From Lama guanicoe (lineage: Eukaryota): a stretch of 64,000 bases of DNA. The stretch's first letter is position 1, and each line of letters begins with the position of its first letter. Positions 30,382-62,939 of the stretch are shown here, one piece after another. The notes under the pieces are model-generated. The model searched no databases, was not told where the DNA came from, and saw only the letters and a list, made by a program, of their open reading frames with translations. A program made the translations under genes and the position numbers. The stretch is taken from positions 1 through 64,000 of the forward strand of contig MU053166.1 of the NCBI GenBank assembly GCA_013239625.1. The letters run 5' to 3'.

Positions 30382-30877
30382 TTTTACTGAGTTCAAACTC
30401 GTTCTGTTCGTCACATGACAGACCAATAATCGGTAGACAAGGTGTTGGGGCAAGGAATAGTGACTTTTTTGGAAAGCTGGCAGACCGAGAAGAAGAACCA
30501 TCTTACTCAATTAAGAATTCAGGCTCCTTTTATACTAAAAAGGGGAGGGGTGTGATTGGTTGTTGCAAACTTCTTGGTGTAGGAATTCTTTGTTCTTGTA
30601 GCTGTCCACATGGGTCAGGTCATGGTACCCCTGTAAAACCTAATAAAACAAATGTTATTTTTTATTCTGCACCTTGTTATCTTCATATATGTGCAAAAGT
30701 TTTAATATCCTTAAAGGTTAGAACCTTGAGAATAGGCTGTCCTGTATTTCAGACTAAAGGCAACATTCTTTTACAAAAGTTGCACAGCTAGCAAGACTAA
30801 GCCTAGACAACAGGGCACAAGGTTAGAGCCTGAGAAACAGATCCAATATGGAGTCAGACTTTTTCTTTTCTGTTACA
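30382..30877 (-). mobile_element. Solo LTR family A, copy 3 (about 20-bp internal deletion)
   Basis: AATA TSD at 30378-30381 and 30878-30881; lacks the tggcagactaatgtcttgg segment present in other copies. Confidence 0.9.
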
Positions 30878-31278
30878 AATATTCTAGCAATAGAATACAT
30901 GTTCTTCTCAAGTGCACATGGAACCTTCTCCAGACTATCTCATATGTTAAGTCACAAACCAAGTCATTTGATATTTAAGAAGACTACAATTATATCAAGC
31001 ATCTTTTCCAACCACAATAATATGAAAGTAGAAACCACCCTTACAACAGGGCACAGGGTTAGAGCCAGAGAAACAGATCCAATATGGAGTCAGACTTGTT
31101 CTTTTCTGTTACAGATATTCTAGCAATAGAATACATGTTCTTCTCAAGTGCACATGGAACCTTCTCCAGACTATCTCATATGTTAAGTCACAAACCAAGT
31201 CATTTGATATTTAAGAAGACTACAATTATATCAAGCATCTTTTCCAACCACAATAATATGAAAGTAGAAACCACCCTT
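30807..31278. repeat. Tandem duplication, 2 x 236 bp
   Basis: 30807-31042 vs 31043-31278; 4 substitutions seen. Confidence 0.95.
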
Positions 31279-32400: not shown

Positions 32401-32923
32401 TGTTACTGAGTCCAAACTCGTTCTGCTCACCGCACAACAGGCCAATAAGTCGGGAGACGCGGTGTTGGGGCAAGGAACAAAGGCTTTATTTGGAAAGCCA
32501 GCAGACCGAGAGGATGGCAGACTAATGTCTTGGAGAACCATCCTACTCCAGTCAGAATACAGGCTCCTTTTATACAAAAAAAAGGGAGGGGGTGTGGTTG
32601 GTTGTTGGAAACTTCTTGCTGCAGGCATTCTTTGTTCTTGCAGCCGTCCATGTGGGTCAGGCCATGGTGTCCCTGTAAACCTCCAACAAAACAAAAGTTA
32701 TTTTCTATTTTGCAACTTGCCATCTCTACATAAGTGCAGAAGTGCTAACATCCTTAAAGATCAGAGCCCCGAGGATAGGCTCTCCTATATATTTCAGGCT
32801 CAAGGTGACATTGTTTTACAAAAGGTGCAGAGCTGGCAAGGCTAAGCCTAGAAAACAGGGCACAGTGGTTAAAACTAAAGGAACAGATCTAATACAGAGT
32901 CAGATTTGTTCTCCTCTATTACA
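32401..32923 (-). mobile_element. Solo LTR family A, copy 4 (more divergent subtype)
   Basis: TGTTACTGAG..TTACA; flanks atac/atat. Confidence 0.9.
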
Positions 32924-37329: not shown

Positions 37330-38037
37330 CTTTATTTTATTTTATTTTTTTGGTGGAATTGAGGCAGGAAGCCCCATAAAAAGACCGGCAGGACCCGTTG
37401 GCAGGGCCATTGCTCTCCTCCCAGCACCGTCTGGTTCCCTGGCCCAGAGGCTCTATCTCACCTTTTGCCTCTAAAGCGGCTTACACCTAGAATTCTATTG
37501 GTTCCCTGAGCTCACTTCTGATTGGTTATTTTCTTCACCCCTGATTGGTTATTACTCTCATTTCTGATTGGTCCACTTCCCTAACTTCTGATTGGTCCAT
37601 TTGTAGAACTTAATTTGCATGGAGCTCACTCCTGATTGGTCTATTTCTACAAAGCTTGTTCCTGGTTGGTGAACTTCTGTTGTACTTTATTGCATATGAT
37701 GTTGCAAAGTGTAAAACTGGCAGCCTATAAAAGGCCTGTGTAAACCTACAGACGGGATCCAGAGCTTGAGGTGTTAACTCCTCTGGTCCCGCTGGCATAA
37801 TAAACCTGAGTTCTCCAACTCTCCGAGTGCTGCTTGGTCTCTTGAGTGCTGCTTGGTCTCTTGCCCGGATCCAGGTTGCTGTCATAACTGAGCTGTAACA
37901 CTGAGCTGTAACACATTTTTCCACAACAGAATGAGGTTATTAAGTTTATATATTTTTAGAGGAGGTACTGGTGATTGAACCTTGGACTTTGTGCATGCTA
38001 AGCATTTTGGTCTACTACTTGAGCTATACCCTCCCCC
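37330..38037 (-). mobile_element. vic-1-like tRNA SINE split by LTR B copy 2
   Basis: Tail at 37330-37355, head at 37933-38037 (gagctataccctccccc); 11-bp TSD actcaatttta at 37319-37329 and 38038-38048. Confidence 0.85.
37360..37928 (+). mobile_element. Solo LTR family B, copy 2
   Basis: TG..CA; GAAT TSD at 37356-37359 and 37929-37932; ctgattgg array, ctataaaagg, aataaa. Confidence 0.93.
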
Positions 38038-44287: not shown

Positions 44288-44830
44288 NNNNNNNNNNNNN
44301 NNNNNNNNNNNNNNNNNNNNNNNNNNNNNNNNNNNNNNNNNNNNNNNNNNNNNNNNNNNNNNNNNNNNNNNNNNNNNNNNNNNNNNNNNNNNNNNNNNNN
44401 NNNNNNNNNNNNNNNNNNNNNNNNNNNNNNNNNNNNNNNNNNNNNNNNNNNNNNNNNNNNNNNNNNNNNNNNNNNNNNNNNNNNNNNNNNNNNNNNNNNN
44501 NNNNNNNNNNNNNNNNNNNNNNNNNNNNNNNNNNNNNNNNNNNNNNNNNNNNNNNNNNNNNNNNNNNNNNNNNNNNNNNNNNNNNNNNNNNNNNNNNNNN
44601 NNNNNNNNNNNNNNNNNNNNNNNNNNNNNNNNNNNNNNNNNNNNNNNNNNNNNNNNNNNNNNNNNNNNNNNNNNNNNNNNNNNNNNNNNNNNNNNNNNNN
44701 NNNNNNNNNNNNNNNNNNNNNNNNNNNNNNNNNNNNNNNNNNNNNNNNNNNNNNNNNNNNNNNNNNNNNNNNNNNNNNNNNNNNNNNNNNNNNNNNNNNN
44801 NNNNNNNNNNNNNNNNNNNNNNNNNNNNNN
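44288..44830. other. Assembly gap
   Basis: N run. Confidence 1.
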
Positions 44831-50130: not shown

Positions 50131-50280
50131 ATGTATTTTGATGTCACGGACGTAGAAGCATCTGTGGTTGTAATAGGAGCAAAGAGAGAGTATGAAACAG
50201 GCTTTCCCACAACTGCACTGGGCTGTTGTTGCTGCTCTAATTGGCTGTGATTTCAGCTCTGTGCCTCTGGGAAGTTAAAA

Positions 50281-50879
50281 TGAGGCAGGAAGCCCCCAAA
50301 AAAGATCAGCAGGACCCCTAAGCAGGGCTGCTTCTCTCCTCTTAGCACCATCCTTTCCCTGGCCCAGAGGCTCTATCTCACTTTTGCCTCTATAGAGGCT
50401 AACTTACACCTAGAATTCTATTGGTTCCCTGAACTCACTTCTGATTGGTTATTTCCTTCACTCCTGATTGATTATTACTCTCACTTCTGATTGGCTATTA
50501 CTCTCACTTCTGTTTGGTTATTACTCTCACTTCTGATTGGTCCTCTTCCCTAACTTCTGATTGGTCCATTTGTAGTACTTCATTTGGATGGAGCTCACTC
50601 CTGATTGGTCTATTTCTACAAAGCTTGTTCCTGGTTGGTCAACTTCTGTCGTACTTTATTTGCATATGATGTTGGAAAGTGTAAAACTGGCAGCCTATAA
50701 AAGGCCTGTGTAAACATACAGACGGGGTCCAGAGCTTAAAGTGTTAACCTCTCTGGGCCAGCTGGTGTAATAAACCTGAGCTCTCCGACTCTGCAAGTGC
50801 TGCTTGGTCTCTTGTCTGGATCCAGGTTGCTGTCACAACTGAGCTGTAATACTGAGCTGTAACACACTTTTCTGCAACA
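50281..50879 (+). mobile_element. Solo LTR family B, copy 3
   Basis: TG..CA; AAAA TSD at 50277-50280 and 50880-50883; longest ctcacttctgattgg array. Confidence 0.93.
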
Positions 50880-53049
50880 AAAAGGATGCTGTAAAGGAAT
50901 CATACAACTTCCCATGTCTCCATTTTCCAAGCTCCAGTATTCTCATTGAAAATATCCTTTACCATGCTGGTGATCACCCTCATTATACAAATGATCACTA
51001 TCAGGGGTTTCTGCCTTGCCATTGTCTCATTATGATCTCAGCTGAAGTTTCACAAAACTGAAGGCTTTTACAGCCTTCTCCTGTAAATTATTTGGTTTAT
51101 TTCTTAGAGAGATGGGTTTCCACCTAGACTTGGGATTTGCCATTGTTCTTATACTTCGTGTTGCTTCCATATTCTGATGAGGAATTCAATGCTCCCCTCT
51201 GTGTGGTCTTTGGGAAAGTTTTGTGAAGAGGATACTAACTAATGTTCTTGGGATTTTCTTATGTGCCAATTTTGGGACAAAGCATCTTGCTCACATTGTT
51301 TCACTTTAGCTTCTGAATAACCCTGGTAAATTCGTGTTATTGTTATTCATAGAGGAGGATATCGAGGCTGAGAATTTAAATATCATGATCGACTCCACAC
51401 TAGTAAGCAGTGGAGTCAGGATTTGAGACTTTCCCTATAATTTCCCTAGAACTGCCAAGCACAAGTTCTTTCTATTGCCATTGCTCGGCAGGTCCCAGAC
51501 TAAGTTCCCGGAGCAACTCCTGAAGGAATGCCTTTTTCTCGCTCCAGCACTTGAAAGTTTCTTTCTGACATCCAGGCTAACTGCACTGCTTATTTTGTAA
51601 TCCAGTCAAATGCAGCAGCAGTTTTATATTTCTGCCGTTGAATCTCAGATCCAAGCAACTGGCAGCAGCATAAATCCCTCAGTGTAAAAGAATTGTAATG
51701 ATCTGACTTTGTCGATAGGTTGACACCAAATTCTTTTAGTCACATAAGACTTTTTGGAGTTAGAAATAAAAATAGTTGCAGAGGAGTGGATTTGCGGAGT
51801 CACAGAAGAACAATTTAACTGAAAAAATGATGCTTTATAAAATATTTATAATAAAATATGTTTAATTTTCCATCCCTAGAGACAACTACCAAAAATACAC
51901 CTCCTTTGATTTTTATTCCCATCACTTCCTTCATTTCCTCTCAAGTCTGCACTGAAATAATGTTCATAATCTGCTGCAGGCTATACCGTCCTGCATTTCC
52001 TCTTCTGAAAAAGGGACAAGCAAGAATCTTCTTACCAGGTGATAACTGGTTCACCTTCAGGAATAAAGTCGTTAATGAGAAATGGTTATATTACGACTGC
52101 CTATTTTTACCCCTCATCTTAGTTTTTCTAATTTACATAAACCTATGACTATTTTACTACAAACCATAAAAAGAAATAGCAATCTTTATATAATGTTTAC
52201 AACCTAAGAAAACCACTCAGTTCAGTTCAGTATGAGGACTTAGTATGAGCTATGCTAGAGAAGTTGCTCTTGAGGAATTTATAGTCTATGGAAGAACAAA
52301 CACAAAGAGGAAAAAAAAATCCTAAGCTACAAATGCTATGAGACAATAATTTTATCAACTTGAAAATTCCACAAAGACTTACTGGTGGGAATAAGTAAAG
52401 TGGACCAGGTGAATATAAAGGGAGAGAGACTTCTGACAGAGGAAACTGCCTGAAATAAGGCAATCTAGGGTGTGAGGTATTGCTAGTGTTCTGTCTCCCA
52501 CATCTCCTCCCAGTTCCCAGCGTGAGAGTGAGGTCCAGTGAGGAGCTTACTCTGCGTCTTTTGCTGCCGTCAGTAAGGAGAAACGATGCAGTGAAAGATG
52601 GGGCTAGCTGGCATTCTGCTTTCCCTTAACTGTGATGTATGTGTGTGGGGGTTGGGATGCTATCTACAAGGGGCTGACTGTCCACTCCATCCCTACACGC
52701 AGGACCTGGCACCAACGTTGATGTCCCTAACCACAACAAAATCCAAGCCAGTCTGCTTTTCTTGCTACCGCAGGTGATACTTGGATTTGCTTGGGAACCT
52801 GCTATGGCGTTTCCAGAAAATGTCATTATGAGAGGAATAAACCTTTTCTTATCTTCTTGGTGCAGTTTGGCACTATCAGCCTCCAAATCTCGATTTTGGG
52901 TGGTGTTTCCATCTCATCTCCTTAATGCCTAAATAGATGTATAGGTAGGATGGCGATTCAAGTTGACTGACTCCGTTTTCTCATGTGACTGCGGAGACCG
53001 TTTTTCCTGAGAGAGAAGAAAGGTCAGCGATGAATCCTACATGTGGTAA

Positions 53050-53764: not shown

Positions 53765-56130
53765 GGCTATTATTATTTTGAACAAACTGTTACCTGTTAG
53801 AGCAATTAAGAATAAGAAAAATACAAATTTAATTTTTCCTTCACTTAACCTATTCCTTCTATAACTTCTTTTAATACTGCTTGTCCAGCAGGTAAACTGG
53901 CAACAAATTCCCTTAATTTTGGTTAGTCTGAGAAAGTCTTTATTTGCCCTTCAGTTTTGAAAGATAATTTTTTAGGGTACAGAATTCTAGGCTGGTGATT
54001 TTCTCTCTCAACACTAAATATTTCACTCCACTTTTTCCTGCTTGCGTGTTTTCTGAGAAATTGATGTCCTTTTTATCTTTGTTCCTCTTCAAGGTAAGGT
54101 GCTTTTTTAATTCAGCCTTCTTTCACGGTTTCTTTTTTCCCCCTTCATCTCTGATTTTCTGTGGTATGAAATTAATATGAGTAGGTGCATTTGTCCTGCT
54201 TGGAGTTCTCTGAGTTTCCTGGATTTGTGGTTTGCTGCCTGACATTAATTTGGGGGAAATTCTCAGTTATAATTGTTTCAAATATTGCTTCTATCCTTTT
54301 CTTTTTCTCCTTCTGGTCTTCCCATTATGCATATATTAAAATATTTTGCAGTTGTCCCCCGGTTCTTGGGGTTTTTTATTTCAGACTTATTTTTTTTTCT
54401 GTTTACTTTTAATTTTGCAGGGTTCTACTGAAGTCCTGTCAAACTCAGCAATTCTTTCATCAGCTGTGTCCCACGTAATAAGCCCAATTAAGGCATTCTT
54501 CCTTTCTTTAACAGTATGTCTGACCTCAAGCGTTTCTTTTTCTTTCTTAGAATTTCCATTTGTCTGCTACATTGCCCATCTGCTTTGGCATGCTGTCTAT
54601 TTTACCGACCTTAGAGCTCTAGGTGATTATTCTCAGTGATTATCCCCAGTCAGATAATTTCAACAGCCCTGTCCTAACTTAATTTTGTTATGAGGTTTGT
54701 TTTGTCTCTTCAAACTGCGTTTTTAGTGTGTCTTGATATCTTGTCATTTTTCTGGTAGTTGAACATGATATACCAAGTAAAGGAAATTGTTGTAAAAAGG
54801 CCTGTAATAATGTGGTGGTGTTACCTGGAGGGGGGGGAATCAAAGTTACCTTGGTTCATAGTCACCTGAAAAAAAAAAGAATTTCTCCCAGGAGACAGAA
54901 TGTGTGATATAAAACCTAAGATTTTATTAGTGAAGTAAAAAGGTAGTAAGACGTAGTCCACCCCTGAGACCTGGGGGCAGGCCACTCCAAGAGGAAAAGT
55001 GGTGCCGCTGCTTTGTTTTTCCTGTTTTATATCCTGGCTTAGGGGGCGTTTTCGTGATTGGTTGATTCACTGCTCAGGTTCTGCGAGCGCCCAGGCTGAT
55101 TGACAGCTCACGTTCCTTGTGCTCAGGCACGCCCATCTCTTCTGCGCATGTCCTTACCCATGATGCACACGGGGAAACCTGCGGGCCGGGCCGGGGCTCA
55201 GACTGCGGTACTAATTACATCGTAGTGAGCATTGGGTCAAGTTAAGCCGGGTCCTTCTCTCTACTGGGCAGCCGCAGCGTTCCAGTCTAGCCGGCTTCTT
55301 TGCGGGCCTTCATTTAGACAAAGTAAGTGTGGGGCCTCTTGTCCTGAGCGCAGGAGTGCTGTTAATTTTGGGGTTGCTCCCTCCCCCTTCTCTCCCCTTC
55401 CCTGGTGCTCATTTCTATCTAACTGCCTAACAGTGGTAAGGTGTTTGGGGATGTGAGGCCTCCTACAGTCCTATGAGTAGGTCTCAGTCTTTCAGGACAA
55501 TTTCCCTTGGACTATAAACTTCACTAGTGCTTTTCTCAGTTCCCCCACCAGCACCTTAGGTGGGACAGGACGGCCAGAGTGGATTGATATTGAGTATTTT
55601 CTTTCTCCCATGTGGAAGGCTAGCTGGGTCTGGAGTCGGCTATTTCCCTTTCTCCACGTGGAAGATGAGAGTCAGGTGTGGTTGGGGATTTCCAGTCCCC
55701 TAAGTCAATGAGGCTCCGATAAAACACCTGCAGGTTGGGCGCTGTTTAAATGGTTTTTCCCGAGGGCAGACCTTGTTAAGAATAGAATGATCTGGTGTAT
55801 TTCAAACTGGTTGCTTTTCCCCTCTTTGCGGTAAGCAGCAGGGGACTTTTCTCCAGTGTTCTTTGTGAGAAACTGATACAAATTTAGAAAGTAAAACCCA
55901 CAAAAGTGTGGTCCTCCCCATGAATGAGTCTCTGGAGTTTTTCACTCTCAGAACTGTCTACACTGAGCCTCCTGTAGTTAATCAGTTCTAGTTCTGGTTT
56001 TCCTGCCTGGCACGGATTCCTGCACAGGTTTCAACTTGTGGATCTCTGCCCTGGTAAGTTACCATTTTTGTATTCACCTGTTGGTCTCTCCAATTTTGGT
56101 GGCAATGATTTGCTTTGTGACCTCATTTCT
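53765..56130 (-). mobile_element. Old L1 5'/ORF1 region, interrupted by LTR 54819-55432
   Basis: ctggcaacaaattcccttaattttggttagtctgagaaagtctttatt; tgacattaatttggggaaattctcag. Confidence 0.7.
54819..55432 (-). mobile_element. CpG-rich solo LTR (ERV1-like, 614 bp)
   Basis: TG..CA; GTGG TSD at 54815-54818 and 55433-55436; minus-strand TATAAAA near 55030 and AATAAA near 54925. Confidence 0.88.
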
Positions 56131-59969: not shown

Positions 59970-60355
59970 ACGTCTGTGAGTCTTTGTTTTGTAAATAAGT
60001 TCATTTTTCTTTTTTTTTATTCCATATATAAGTGATACCATATGGTACTTTTCTTTCTCTTTCTGGCTTACTTCAGTTAGAATGACATTCTCCAGGTCCA
60101 TCTATGTTGCTGCAAATGGCATTATTTTATTATTTTTTCTGGCTGAGTAGTATTTCATTGTATAAATATACCACAACTTCTTTACCCAGTTATCTGTCGA
60201 TGGACATTTAGTTTGTTTCTATGTCATGACTGAAACATTATGCTGTATACCAGAAATTGACACAACACTGTAAGCTGACTATACTTCGATAAAAATACAT
60301 ATGATACAAATATTACATATAATATATGTATTATATATATAAAATACAAAAAAAA
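59970..60355 (+). mobile_element. Short 5'-inverted young L1 (inverted part ~59970-60225, sense 3' end ~60226-60355)
   Basis: Antisense ORF2-end/3' UTR joined to sense atgactgaaacattatgctgtataccagaaattgacacaacactgtaagctgactatacttc plus A-rich tail; flanks aattccagtt/aaatccaatt. Confidence 0.75.
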
Positions 60356-60437
60356 TCCAATTTTGATGTTCAAGTTAATCATCTCAGACTTTGGGGTACA
60401 TCCTTTGTCTGGGTCCTCTTTTTTTAATTTTTGAAAT

Positions 60438-60636
60438 TGTCGGGAGCCCGGCCACCAGACCCTGAGGCTGTACGCACGGCGAGGCCTACAGGAGGCCCAC
60501 TACACGGCGGTGGGCCGAAAAGGTGTGGCAAGCTTAAGAGTTAAAAATACAAGGAATTCCTATTTAGGGAGGAGGCTGGTCCGAAGATAGTGAGTTATCT
60601 CAATTGATTGTTCACAAAAGAATAAAGAGGAATTGG
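60438..60636 (+). mobile_element. Truncated young LTR start (ERV2/beta-like)
   Basis: Begins TGTCGGGAGCC, like IAP/BTLTR-type termini; CpG-rich relative to flanks; no 3' CA end visible. Confidence 0.6.
60574..60616 (+). pseudogene. RNY1: 5' fragment (nt 1-43) of Y1 RNA
   Basis: GGCTGGTCCGAAGATAGTGAGTTATCTCAATTGATTGTTCACA vs human Y1 (recalled) GGCTGGTCCGAAGGTAGTGAGTTATCTCAATTGATTGTTCACA, 42/43. Confidence 0.9.
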
Positions 60637-62939
60637 AATCATCTCAGACTTTGGGGTACATCCTTTGTCTGGGTCCTCTTTTTTTAATTTTTGAAATTAT
60701 CCAGTTCTGTGCAGTCTAATAGTCCTCTTCTTCCAGTGTTTAATACTACTTTTTTTCTCCATTTTCTGTAATGAATACTTTTTGTATTAAGGCACTTAGA
60801 ATACATCAAATTCTCATTTCATTCCTGAGACTTGCTCTTAGTTTGGGCCTTATGTATACATATGCTCACCTAATATAGGAACATTTATATCCTTCAGTAT
60901 TCCCTTCGAAAATATATTCCCTGTCTTTCCAGAGAGAGAGAAGGAAGTATAGCCTTTTTTTTAAAAAAAAATCTTTCTCTTTTTTTCCTGTCTCTTTCTC
61001 TATCATTTGAAAGCCTCGACTTCAGTCTTTTGGATATTCCGCAGTGGCGGTGATGGAAGAAGAGTGGGTGGTTAGGCATCTACCTAGCTCTAATCACCGA
61101 GGTGTTTGTGTTCAACCATTAAGATGGAACTGTGCTCATTGTCAGGTTGATTACACAAGCAGAGCCTGTATACTTACTCACTTACTGGGTAGTGACGGCA
61201 GTGTTGAATCACGGCAGTAAACTGGACCATAAGGCTGTGAAGGTTTCTGCAATATCTAGGATTATCCAGTTGGGTCTAATTTGGCCAGTGCAAAAATTTG
61301 AGACACAGAAATAGTCCATCCTAATTCTAATCAGAAGCAGAGTATCAAAACTAAATAGAAATGTAAGGATATATGCTCCAAAGAACAATGCAAACACGGT
61401 CTTTTTGGGGGGAATGTCAGCTATTCAAGCCCACCATTGCTCTGGAGGATAATATTCAAGGAGTTCCTCAGCTTAATGGTGGTAATTGATTTCAAGCCCA
61501 GAGAAAGGCAATCTAAGAAATGACTGTAGCTATTCTCTGAGGAAGTGAGCAATGGAAAAGCAATCCAATAGGCATTTTGCTGTTCCCATGAGATTGTACA
61601 TATTTTCCTGTTGCTTTCAGAGTCCAGATTCTGAGGATGAACCCCCCTCCCCATTTCTTTTTAGGGGCACAAACTGGAAAATCAAAACAAACAAAAATAA
61701 TAAAACTTTAGGGATAGAATAGGTATGTGTTGATGAAAACCAAGTTTACTGTGGACTAAATCAGAGAGGAAGCACCCCTAGAGCAAGTGGGGAATATTTA
61801 GCACTGAATAAGAATTCACATTTTCCCTCTCCATAAGATCGGACATACAAATTTAACCTGACGTGGTGGCAGGACTAATGTTTTTCTGTCATCTTTTATT
61901 TTAAATAATTATCATTTCTCTTTTCCTCATAATAGTGTACATTTTATACACACACACTGTAACTTAAAGGCCAAAGCTATTCAATTACCCTGCTTGCATG
62001 ATACATGGTGATGATGGTGAAAAGCTACCTCATGTTGCAAGCATGGCATGGAATTGTACTTTTCACAGTATTGGAATTTCAAAATTGTGTACAAAAATAT
62101 TTGTCATGGATGACGTAATGGGAAGCAAAGCCTGCCATCTTAATAAGAGCTATATTGTAATGATATTGGAAACACTACACCCAAGGGATGGGAAAACAAA
62201 GCAAAATGGAAGTTTTTGAATTGAGGTGTTAACTGGTGTTTCATCTGAGAGAGATGGAATTTTTACTTACTTTATTCCAAAATTCCCTACTTCAATTTTA
62301 TTCTTCACTTGCTGACCTGTTTTCCATTAGTCTATTGCCAAAATGGGACATAATCACATATAACCCAATCAGACTGAGTCTTAAAATAGACAGACAAGAT
62401 AAGGTCAAAGAAACAGCTGAGTTTAGAGTGTCTGCCCTCTGGATTTATATTATGGACTTTGAGAGATGAAAAAGCATTCTCTGGTTTAATGAATTGAGTA
62501 TGATTTGATTCTCTATTGAATCACTGTGTGTCATTCAACCAGAAGTTCAACTTACTACTGCACCTGATTCCAGTTAAATTTTTTGAGACCCACAACTGGG
62601 GAAATTTGAAGCTGCTACCATAAGAGTAAAAGCCAAAACACCTCCGGAGATTATTTTATGCAACATCACATCACCCTGTACAACTGAAAATGCTATCAAG
62701 GACTATAAAGGTATTGTAATCTAGAAAATAATAATGGAAAATAGAAAAATAAAAGCAAACAGTTACTGCCCTATAATTTTTTAGTTGTGTGACCATCCTC
62801 AGACACAGGGAAATCTAATGACAGAAGAAAAACAGCTTAGGCAAATTTTTCTATACTTCACATGCATACCTGTTAGTATCTGAACATATTCAAGGAGTGA
62901 TTTTTGATATTATTTTTAGAAATAAGTGAAACTGAAAAA

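Follow-up and report, generated by a model that had tools for sequence, protein, structure and literature searches.

A compound insert lies at 60439-60636 of the window (the whole stretch of DNA analysed, 64,000 nucleotides). It is bracketed by a perfect direct repeat, the two copies of which are identical at 62 of 62 positions. The pair was recovered twice in a repeat search of the window, and the copies stand exactly 198 bp apart. These 198 bp consist of a 135-nt segment, nucleotides 1-43 of Y1 RNA and a 20-nt tail (Table 1). Neither border of the insert can be placed to the base: T60438 could belong to either side on the left, and so could the AA of 60637-60638 on the right. The 62-bp duplication that brackets the insert is the key structural fact of the locus, and it was absent from the first-pass annotation of this DNA.

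Table 1. Features of the insert and of its flanks, in window coordinates.
Feature	Position	Strand	Remarks
TT/AA, left border of the duplicated target	60375..60378	+	Nick site of the L1-endonuclease type for a + strand reading of the insert
Target-site duplication, left copy, 62 bp	60377..60438	.	Final T (60438) may be the first base of the insert
CpG-rich 135-nt segment, putative U3 from an LTR of class II (IAP-/betaretrovirus-like)	60439..60573	+	Begins TGTCGGGAGCC when T60438 is included
CTTAAGAG then TTAAAAATA, TATA-like run	60533..60549	+	TTAAAAATA at -33..-25 from Y1 base 1
Y1 RNA nucleotides 1-43	60574..60616	+	Sense strand, one G>A at 60587; from printed-sequence comparison and Rfam
20-nt tail AAAGAATAAAGAGGAATTGG	60617..60636	+	AATAAA at 60621-60626; read as 3' R up to the poly(A) site; no poly(A) tail
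Target-site duplication, right copy, 62 bp	60637..60698	.	First AA may be a 2-nt poly(A) remnant

The 43-nt piece is Y1 sequence. The key resources table of PMC6060611 gives the sequence of mouse Y1, and a comparison by eye shows 42 of 43 positions to be the same, the sole mismatch being at nucleotide 14, where mouse has G and the window has A. Mouse Y3 and human Y4, which are printed in the same table, are by eye clearly unlike the piece, as expected for an origin of the Y1 type. Past nucleotide 43 the divergence of the window from mouse Y1 is complete, with nothing shared by eye. The first-pass annotation had described 43 nt beginning at Y1 nucleotide 1 with one G>A change, and the comparison with the printed mouse sequence bears this out.

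The Rfam Y_RNA family, which the same annotation had named as a means of confirmation, points the same way. When the stretch was cut to 60574-60617, which lets Rfam accept truncated matches, the best match was Y_RNA (RF00019), a 3'-truncated alignment to model positions 1-44 of 96 (22.4 bits, E 0.0032) that stays under the family's gathering score of 38. A scan of the whole window at the gathering score reported one match, to a tRNA-like element, and no Y_RNA; an E-value scan of 60300-60750 returned eight weak matches, from which Y_RNA was absent. That the family goes unreported in the untruncated scans is expected, because half a stem is present. RF00019 gave no match in 14 control genomes. 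The part of Y1 that is present comprises the 5' strand of the Ro60-binding stem and part of the loop, and the 3' strand is missing. A functional Y RNA would be of full length, with paired 5' and 3' ends and a score at or above the gathering cut-off, and 60574-60616 has none of these properties. With a single strand of the Ro60-binding stem, the fragment therefore cannot form a Y RNA.

The sequence on either side of the Y1 piece has several features of an LTR. The 135-nt segment has a GC content of 0.58 and contains 8 CpG, with a CpG observed/expected ratio of 0.73 as compared with 0.22 for the whole window, which fits a young retroelement copy. The 11-mer TGTCGGGAGCC at its start has a single occurrence in the window, whereas the octamer CTTAAGAG (60533-60540) has four occurrences over both window strands. 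The run TTAAAAATA that follows the octamer stands at a TATA-box distance from Y1 base 1. An A/T run of at least 8 over -31 to -26 is found at 5.8% of random points, and at 0.8% of those where the upstream 135 nt have a GC content of at least 0.5. On the other side, AAAGAATAAA directly follows the Y1 piece, and the pentamer GAGGA is found at both 60569-60573 and 60627-60631. The decamer AAGAATAAAG (60618-60627) occurs once in the window. From the AATAAA that it contains, the insert continues for 10 nt; against the background of this AT-rich window, an AATAAA lies 8-30 nt before 3.4% of random points. The first-pass description of a CpG-rich segment of about 135 bp before Y1, starting with TGTCGGGAGCC, agrees with these values, and its report of AAAGAATAAA after the Y1 piece, with GAGGA on both sides, can be read directly from the DNA. 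Its further claim that 60438-60573 is a multi-copy, "young" LTR found no support, as the segment is single-copy within the window.

Taken by sequence, the insert may plausibly be divided into a U3, with an LTR terminus and a TATA box, and an R that would start about 25 nt past the TATA box, include a poly(A) signal and stop where the RNA is polyadenylated, so that it would look like the leading two-thirds of an LTR. If so, the Y1 43-mer would plausibly fill the first two-thirds of R. The motifs behind this division were chosen after the fact, and for one of them the likeness is presumed: we take TGTCGGGAGCC to differ by a single base from the beginning of the mouse IAP LTR. In partial support, this beginning and a longer form of it appear in a 1990 paper that deals with a fusion transcript of an IAP LTR, and two further motifs that we take to be those of IAP LTRs turn up in papers on IAP LTR insertions. 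An 11-mer taken to be the LTR start of another betaretrovirus was also tried and rejected, as its literature matches were to unrelated primers only.

The other two motifs are found in the segment of the mouse element IAPLTR1_Mm (ERVK) printed in PMC2727916, where CTTAAGAG precedes the start region and AAGAATAAAG lies at the poly(A) signal. By eye, they are collinear with the insert, 73 nt apart in IAPLTR1_Mm and 77 nt apart here. The likeness to the mouse IAP LTR thus consists of three short collinear motifs, the first of them presumed, in a comparison by eye. Outside the shared motifs, the rest of U3 gives no convincing alignment by eye to the printed IAP segment, and the CCAAT region of that segment has no counterpart by eye in the insert. 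The two also differ in the stretch that leads from the TATA-like box to the poly(A) signal, which is a CT-rich repeat in IAPLTR1_Mm and Y1 sequence in the insert, and the host of the insert is a different mammal.

Retroviral integrase duplicates 4-6 bp of its target. The duplication at this locus is 62 bp, and ordinary retroviral integration is therefore ruled out for the copy at 60439-60636. An integrated LTR would also have the structure U3-R-U5 and run from TG to CA; the insert has the TG start, with no U5 and no terminal CA. The search for retroviral frames in the window gave 0 Pfam families across 40 scanned ORFs, and no provirus lies nearby. These 40 were taken from 61 ORFs of at least 90 aa, the 21 excluded being 18 that lie over N runs, two overlapping alternatives and one that spans the insert. 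The first-pass proposal of an ERV LTR that had acquired Y1 by template switching is thus retained in part: the terminus, the TATA box and the AATAAA fit it, while the lack of U5 and CA, the 62-bp duplication and the blank for retroviral frames do not. On the best available reading, the copy at 60439-60636 is plausibly a retrocopied U3-R fragment and not an integrated LTR.

Two of the marks of an L1 retrocopy are seen at the locus, namely a nick site resembling TT/AAAA and a target duplication, although the length of 62 bp is unusual. TT/AA occupies 0.8% of window positions, and the opposite orientation of the insert would give a poorer L1 nick site than the + strand reading. The third mark, a poly(A) tail, is absent: there are two A at most, which may equally well be the opening bases of the duplication. 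In 17 sequencing runs under five organism labels, between 0.62 and 0.77 of 53 words sampled from 60250-60850 were found. By a count of word positions an empty site would give about 0.60, and these shares therefore do not show the insert in other individuals.

Elsewhere in the window, the 135-nt segment and the junctions gave chance matches of at most 29 nt only. Among viral contigs there were 0 loci with a 41-mer, a Y1 26-mer or a junction 22-mer, and three loci with an 18-mer, which extend over 18-24 nt and were judged chance matches. Metagenome contigs gave 0 loci for a Y1 29-mer and a promoter 23-mer, and contigs of prokaryote genomes gave 0 loci for two patterns. All three collections are essentially without mammalian DNA, and their blanks therefore say nothing on copy number. 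The translated frame across the join of the segment and Y1 found no candidate in a word-index search of proteins; in a full search of representative proteins it found one repetitive protein of 1,583 aa (45% over 31 residues, in 8 repeats), which was judged spurious. Three further identities were also discarded. If the insert opened with a primer-binding site or the 3' end of a tRNA, the invariant T-loop/CCA register would be off by one base, judged by eye. A structured small RNA has no Rfam family match, with a z of -2.3 for the fold of the whole insert (6 of 200 shuffles as good). A Y-like Pol III transcript running from 60574 to the T7 run at 60679-60685 has a folding z of -0.9, on a par with shuffled sequence, and its Y stem is without the partner strand.

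The reading favoured here, because it accounts for most features of the insert, is that of an L1-type, severely 5'-truncated retrocopy of the 3' end of a class II ERV RNA, the R of which began with Y1 nucleotides 1-43. We put the chance that it is correct at about even. The source LTR would have had the order U3 - Y1(1-43) - R - U5, with Y1 exactly at the U3/R border. A provirus transcript ending at the poly(A) site of R would have been reverse transcribed at the TT/AA nick from the base of its tail, and inserted by a LINE-1-type target-primed event in place of retroviral integrase; the inserted length would correspond to the last ~200 nt of the ERV RNA. The copy would stop at U3 base 1. Such an end is not what random truncation would predict, whereas plus-strand priming from the polypurine tract naturally yields a DNA end at precisely this base. 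Speculatively, the RNase H-resistant polypurine tract just upstream may have primed or blocked second-strand synthesis. As an alternative that is inseparable from the L1 route, a U3-R cDNA fragment could have been captured at a staggered break without L1. Several points stand against a U3-R retrocopy. No second copy of the 135-nt segment was seen, and the label "LTR" is drawn from short motifs that are partly presumed. In place of the poly(A) tail of known L1-made ERV pseudogenes there is at most AA. The GAGGA repeats around Y1 and AAAGAATAAA are left unexplained, and a start at U3 base 1 needs an extra assumption.

For the Y1 piece, a route is offered by reverse transcription itself. On reaching the 5' end of R, minus-strand strong-stop DNA has to move to another template. 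Y1 RNA packaged in particles would have become a patch template once the strong-stop DNA had reached the 5' end of the viral RNA; the detour onto Y1 would have copied nucleotide 43 back to nucleotide 1, before the DNA landed on the 3' U3. Such a patch would leave the TATA box ~25-33 nt upstream of Y1 base 1. Y1 at the U3/R border and a TATA spacing as predicted therefore favour the strong-stop route, conditional on the LTR reading. A larger claim is that an ERV lineage transduced Y1 nucleotides 1-43 at the U3/R border by strong-stop switching and then propagated them, the insert being an L1-type retrocopy of its RNA. This is possible, though we consider it unlikely. It would follow, at the same low likelihood, that every viral RNA of the lineage has the 5' strand of the Ro60-binding stem at its beginning and again at its end.

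Other histories keep L1 and change the source of the Y1 piece. L1 may have inserted a 3'-truncated Y1 cDNA with the A-rich tail AAAGAATAAA into one source LTR, duplicating GAGGA, so that Y1 would be private to that LTR; the new AATAAA would then have caused premature polyadenylation, and the resulting short RNA would have been retrocopied. One GAGGA indeed adjoins Y1 base 1 on its upstream side and the other immediately follows AAAGAATAAA, and Y RNAs are substrates of L1, with 690 Y RNA candidates in human and 8 in pig at equal cut-offs in PMC4124155. However, a 5-nt repeat in a 20-nt purine-rich tail is a weak signal, and from nucleotide 44 on the printed mouse Y1 has no A-rich stretch for priming. 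The nick site implied is G/C-rich and not like TT/AA. Because the target is not L1-like, and both the TATA spacing and the identity of AAGAATAAAG to the poly(A) region of the IAP LTR would be due to chance, this history, which corresponds to the second option of the first-pass annotation, is less likely than a patch made by template switching, and we regard it as distinctly improbable. Alternatively, the whole insert could be a tripartite chimera, made in a single event as L1 reverse transcriptase switched from the 20-nt tail of a polyadenylated RNA to Y1, copied from nucleotide 43 to its 5' end, and then to a third RNA that gave the 135 nt, either a non-LTR RNA or the same ERV RNA re-entered upstream. 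PMC4476161 discusses, in the case of U6 chimeras, how L1 reverse transcriptase switches onto small RNAs. The complete 5' end of Y1 resembles that of the small RNAs in L1 chimeras, and the TT/AA site and the target duplication fit. Two jumps are required, however, there is no poly(A) tail, and the TATA-like run, the 11-mer of LTR type at the start and the collinearity of the IAP-like motifs become coincidences, and a chimera of this kind appears improbable.

Two further explanations dispense with retrocopying. In one, the most attractive rival to the LTR reading, the insert is a DNA-level copy of the host's own RNY1 from -135 to +43, that is, of a type 3 RNA polymerase III promoter and the start of the gene, which a staggered double-strand break would have taken up together with a 20-nt filler. 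On this view no join exists at Y1 base 1, and a CpG-rich unmethylated promoter would suit 60439-60573. According to PMC4702372, a TATA box at -32 to -25 is required in Y RNA genes, and TTAAAAATA is suitably placed. On the other hand, no convincing match to the proximal sequence element was seen by eye at -65 to -48, the position given in PMC9652321, although this point is weak. PMC3499247 reports a motif in nearly all type 3 genes, and none of its 29 matches in the window (at most 3 mismatches) falls inside 60439-60573. Such a copy leaves the AATAAA near the end, the TT/AA site and the LTR-type terminus unexplained; Y1 ends at nucleotide 43, and the G>A at nucleotide 14 is unexpected in a recent copy of a functional gene. 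The upstream sequences of "Y RNA" in the PMC4124155 supplement, which carry Ensembl/Rfam Y_RNA labels and in no case that of RNY1, did not align to the 135-nt segment. A copy of the RNY1 flank is rated very improbable. The other explanation is an assembly artefact, in which a hemizygous LTR or provirus insertion was mis-joined and part of the LTR spliced back onto 62 bp of flank that had already been used. The assembly is scaffolded, with four N runs, and a near-duplicate block is found just before one of the gaps (1-226 versus 2095-2323, 91-97%). Yet the closest N run is ~15.5 kb off and the join has no shared word longer than ~3 nt. An arbitrary mis-join is also unlikely to give a TT/AA border or to cut 10 nt past AATAAA, at the background frequencies given above (0.8% and 3.4%, respectively), and an artefact is the explanation to which we give the least credence.

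The U3-R retrocopy has a parallel in the processed pseudogenes of HERV-W. These are copies of proviral RNA made by L1, with a 3' LTR reduced to U3-R, a poly(A) tail, a TT/AAAA motif and a duplication of 5-15 bp (Pavlicek et al., as summarized in PMC5016936). The insert resembles them in that U3-R ends at the poly(A) site with no U5, and in having a TT/AA-type site and a duplication not of the integrase type; 5' truncation is common among them. It differs in its tail of at most two A and in the 62-bp duplication. It is also part of an LTR only, from U3 base 1, and is class II-like, with a piece of host Y1 RNA in R. For this last feature, the parallel is with the patching of host RNAs, including 7SL, into retroviral DNA by template switching, often via a third template (PMC4997597). 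As in the origin proposed here, reverse transcriptase there switches to an abundant small host RNA that is co-packaged and copies it in part; the cases are experimental recombinants or oncogene transductions, unlike the natural insert. Retropseudogenes of Y RNA share with the insert a Y1 sequence from base 1, a location outside the Y gene cluster and an L1-type site, but ordinary Y pseudogenes are not set between a promoter-like segment and a poly(A) signal. In L1 chimeras with small RNAs, the small RNA is at the 5' end and there is an A tail, whereas the Y1 of the insert is internal and cut at nucleotide 43. A limited full-text search of the literature found no report of Y RNA sequence inside a natural LTR. 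The insert may thus plausibly combine two known kinds of sequence, an ERV processed pseudogene and a host-RNA patch in retroviral DNA.

The copy in the window is most likely inert. At most, to judge from its motifs, its own TATA box could give rise to a polyadenylated transcript of ~63 nt. What the locus means depends on which origin is correct. Retroviral particles package Y RNAs, Y1 among them, in molar excess over the genome, and we know of no role for this packaging and of no genomic trace of it. A Y1 fragment at the U3/R border would be such a trace, with packaged Y RNA as a natural patch template; only at this border is strong-stop DNA obliged to switch template. If an ERV lineage did propagate the patch, this would be the first natural case of a Y RNA captured by a retrovirus. 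A retrocopy of U3-R only, from U3 base 1, with a 62-bp duplication and no A tail would also widen the forms known for ERV pseudogenes made by L1 or captured at breaks; those made by L1 have so far been described mainly for HERV-W. A one-off chimera would be a curiosity without wider consequence.

Two minor observations concern the Y1 piece. It carries one G>A change in 43 nt, as against no difference in the 62-bp duplication, which is a weak hint that the patch predates the insertion, on numbers that are too small. In addition, Y1 nucleotides 1-11 can form 11 base pairs with the opening 15 nt of the insert, at -17.3 kcal/mol and with the non-Y strand bulged by 3 nt. When the 135-nt segment was shuffled 2,000 times with its dinucleotides preserved, pairing at this energy was found anywhere in the segment in 9.4% of the shuffles and within its first 20 nt in 0.75%. 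The pairing was noticed after the fact and may be due to chance; if an ERV lineage did carry Y1 at its U3/R border, it could have been part of the origin of the patch, or of a Y-like stem in the viral RNA.

The start of the 198-bp insert is predicted to pair with the first nucleotides of the Y1 RNA piece. In the predicted fold, 60440-60453 and 60574-60584 (Y1 nt 1-11) form 11 pairs at -17.3 kcal/mol, and 3 nt of the non-Y strand bulge out. This energy was reached within the first 20 nt in 0.75% of 2,000 shuffles, and anywhere along the 135-nt CpG-rich segment upstream of Y1 in 9.4% of the same number. Y RNAs have a bulged lower stem, to which the predicted pairing bears a loose likeness. The 135-nt segment also contains a perfect 7-bp inverted repeat, GGCCCAC and GTGGGCC with a loop of 9 nt (60494-60516), which is the most stable local hairpin in the predicted fold. 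A T7 run is present at 60679-60685, in the right copy of the direct duplication that flanks the insert, about 105 nt 3' of Y1 base 1. If the 135-nt segment were a Pol III promoter, this run would terminate a transcript of approximately Y RNA length; the fold predicted for a transcript extending up to the run is unremarkable.

Four further duplications or repeat pairs were found in the window (see table). The second copy of the near-duplicate block stops just before the N run at 2328-2997, and the block is either a genuine repeat or a duplication made by the assembly at the edge of the gap. The repeats of about 600 bp both carry an array of 23-bp units with GATTGG (repeat family D2), and could be either the two ageing LTRs of a single element or a pair of solo LTRs. 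No Pfam families turned up among the intervening ORFs, though this interval includes the N run 44288-44830. Comparison within the window indicates that these repeats are unrelated to the 198-bp insert. The shorter repeat pair, of about 200 bp, has the appearance of LTRs at the two ends of a short, old LTR element.

Duplications and direct repeat pairs in the window
Feature	Positions	Identity	Spacing	Families
Tandem duplication, 236-bp unit x 2	30807-31278	98%		D3
Near-duplicate block	1-226 and 2095-2323	91-97%		
Direct repeat pair, ~600 bp each	37357-37931 and 50278-50882	80%	12.9 kb	
Direct repeat pair, ~200 bp	30430-30637 and 32450-32679	roughly 80%	~2.03 kb	D6, D10, D11

The sole Rfam match at gathering score in a scan of the whole window is a tRNA-like sequence at 1321-1393 on the reverse strand (40.7 bits), which looks more like a tRNA-derived SINE head than a tRNA gene. 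An L1 3' end is seen on the forward strand at about 60000-60300, and the two elements jointly identify the window as mammalian. The kilobase with the highest GC content in the window (0.50) is 55001-56000, a possible CpG island or promoter within which several GC-rich motif matches fall.
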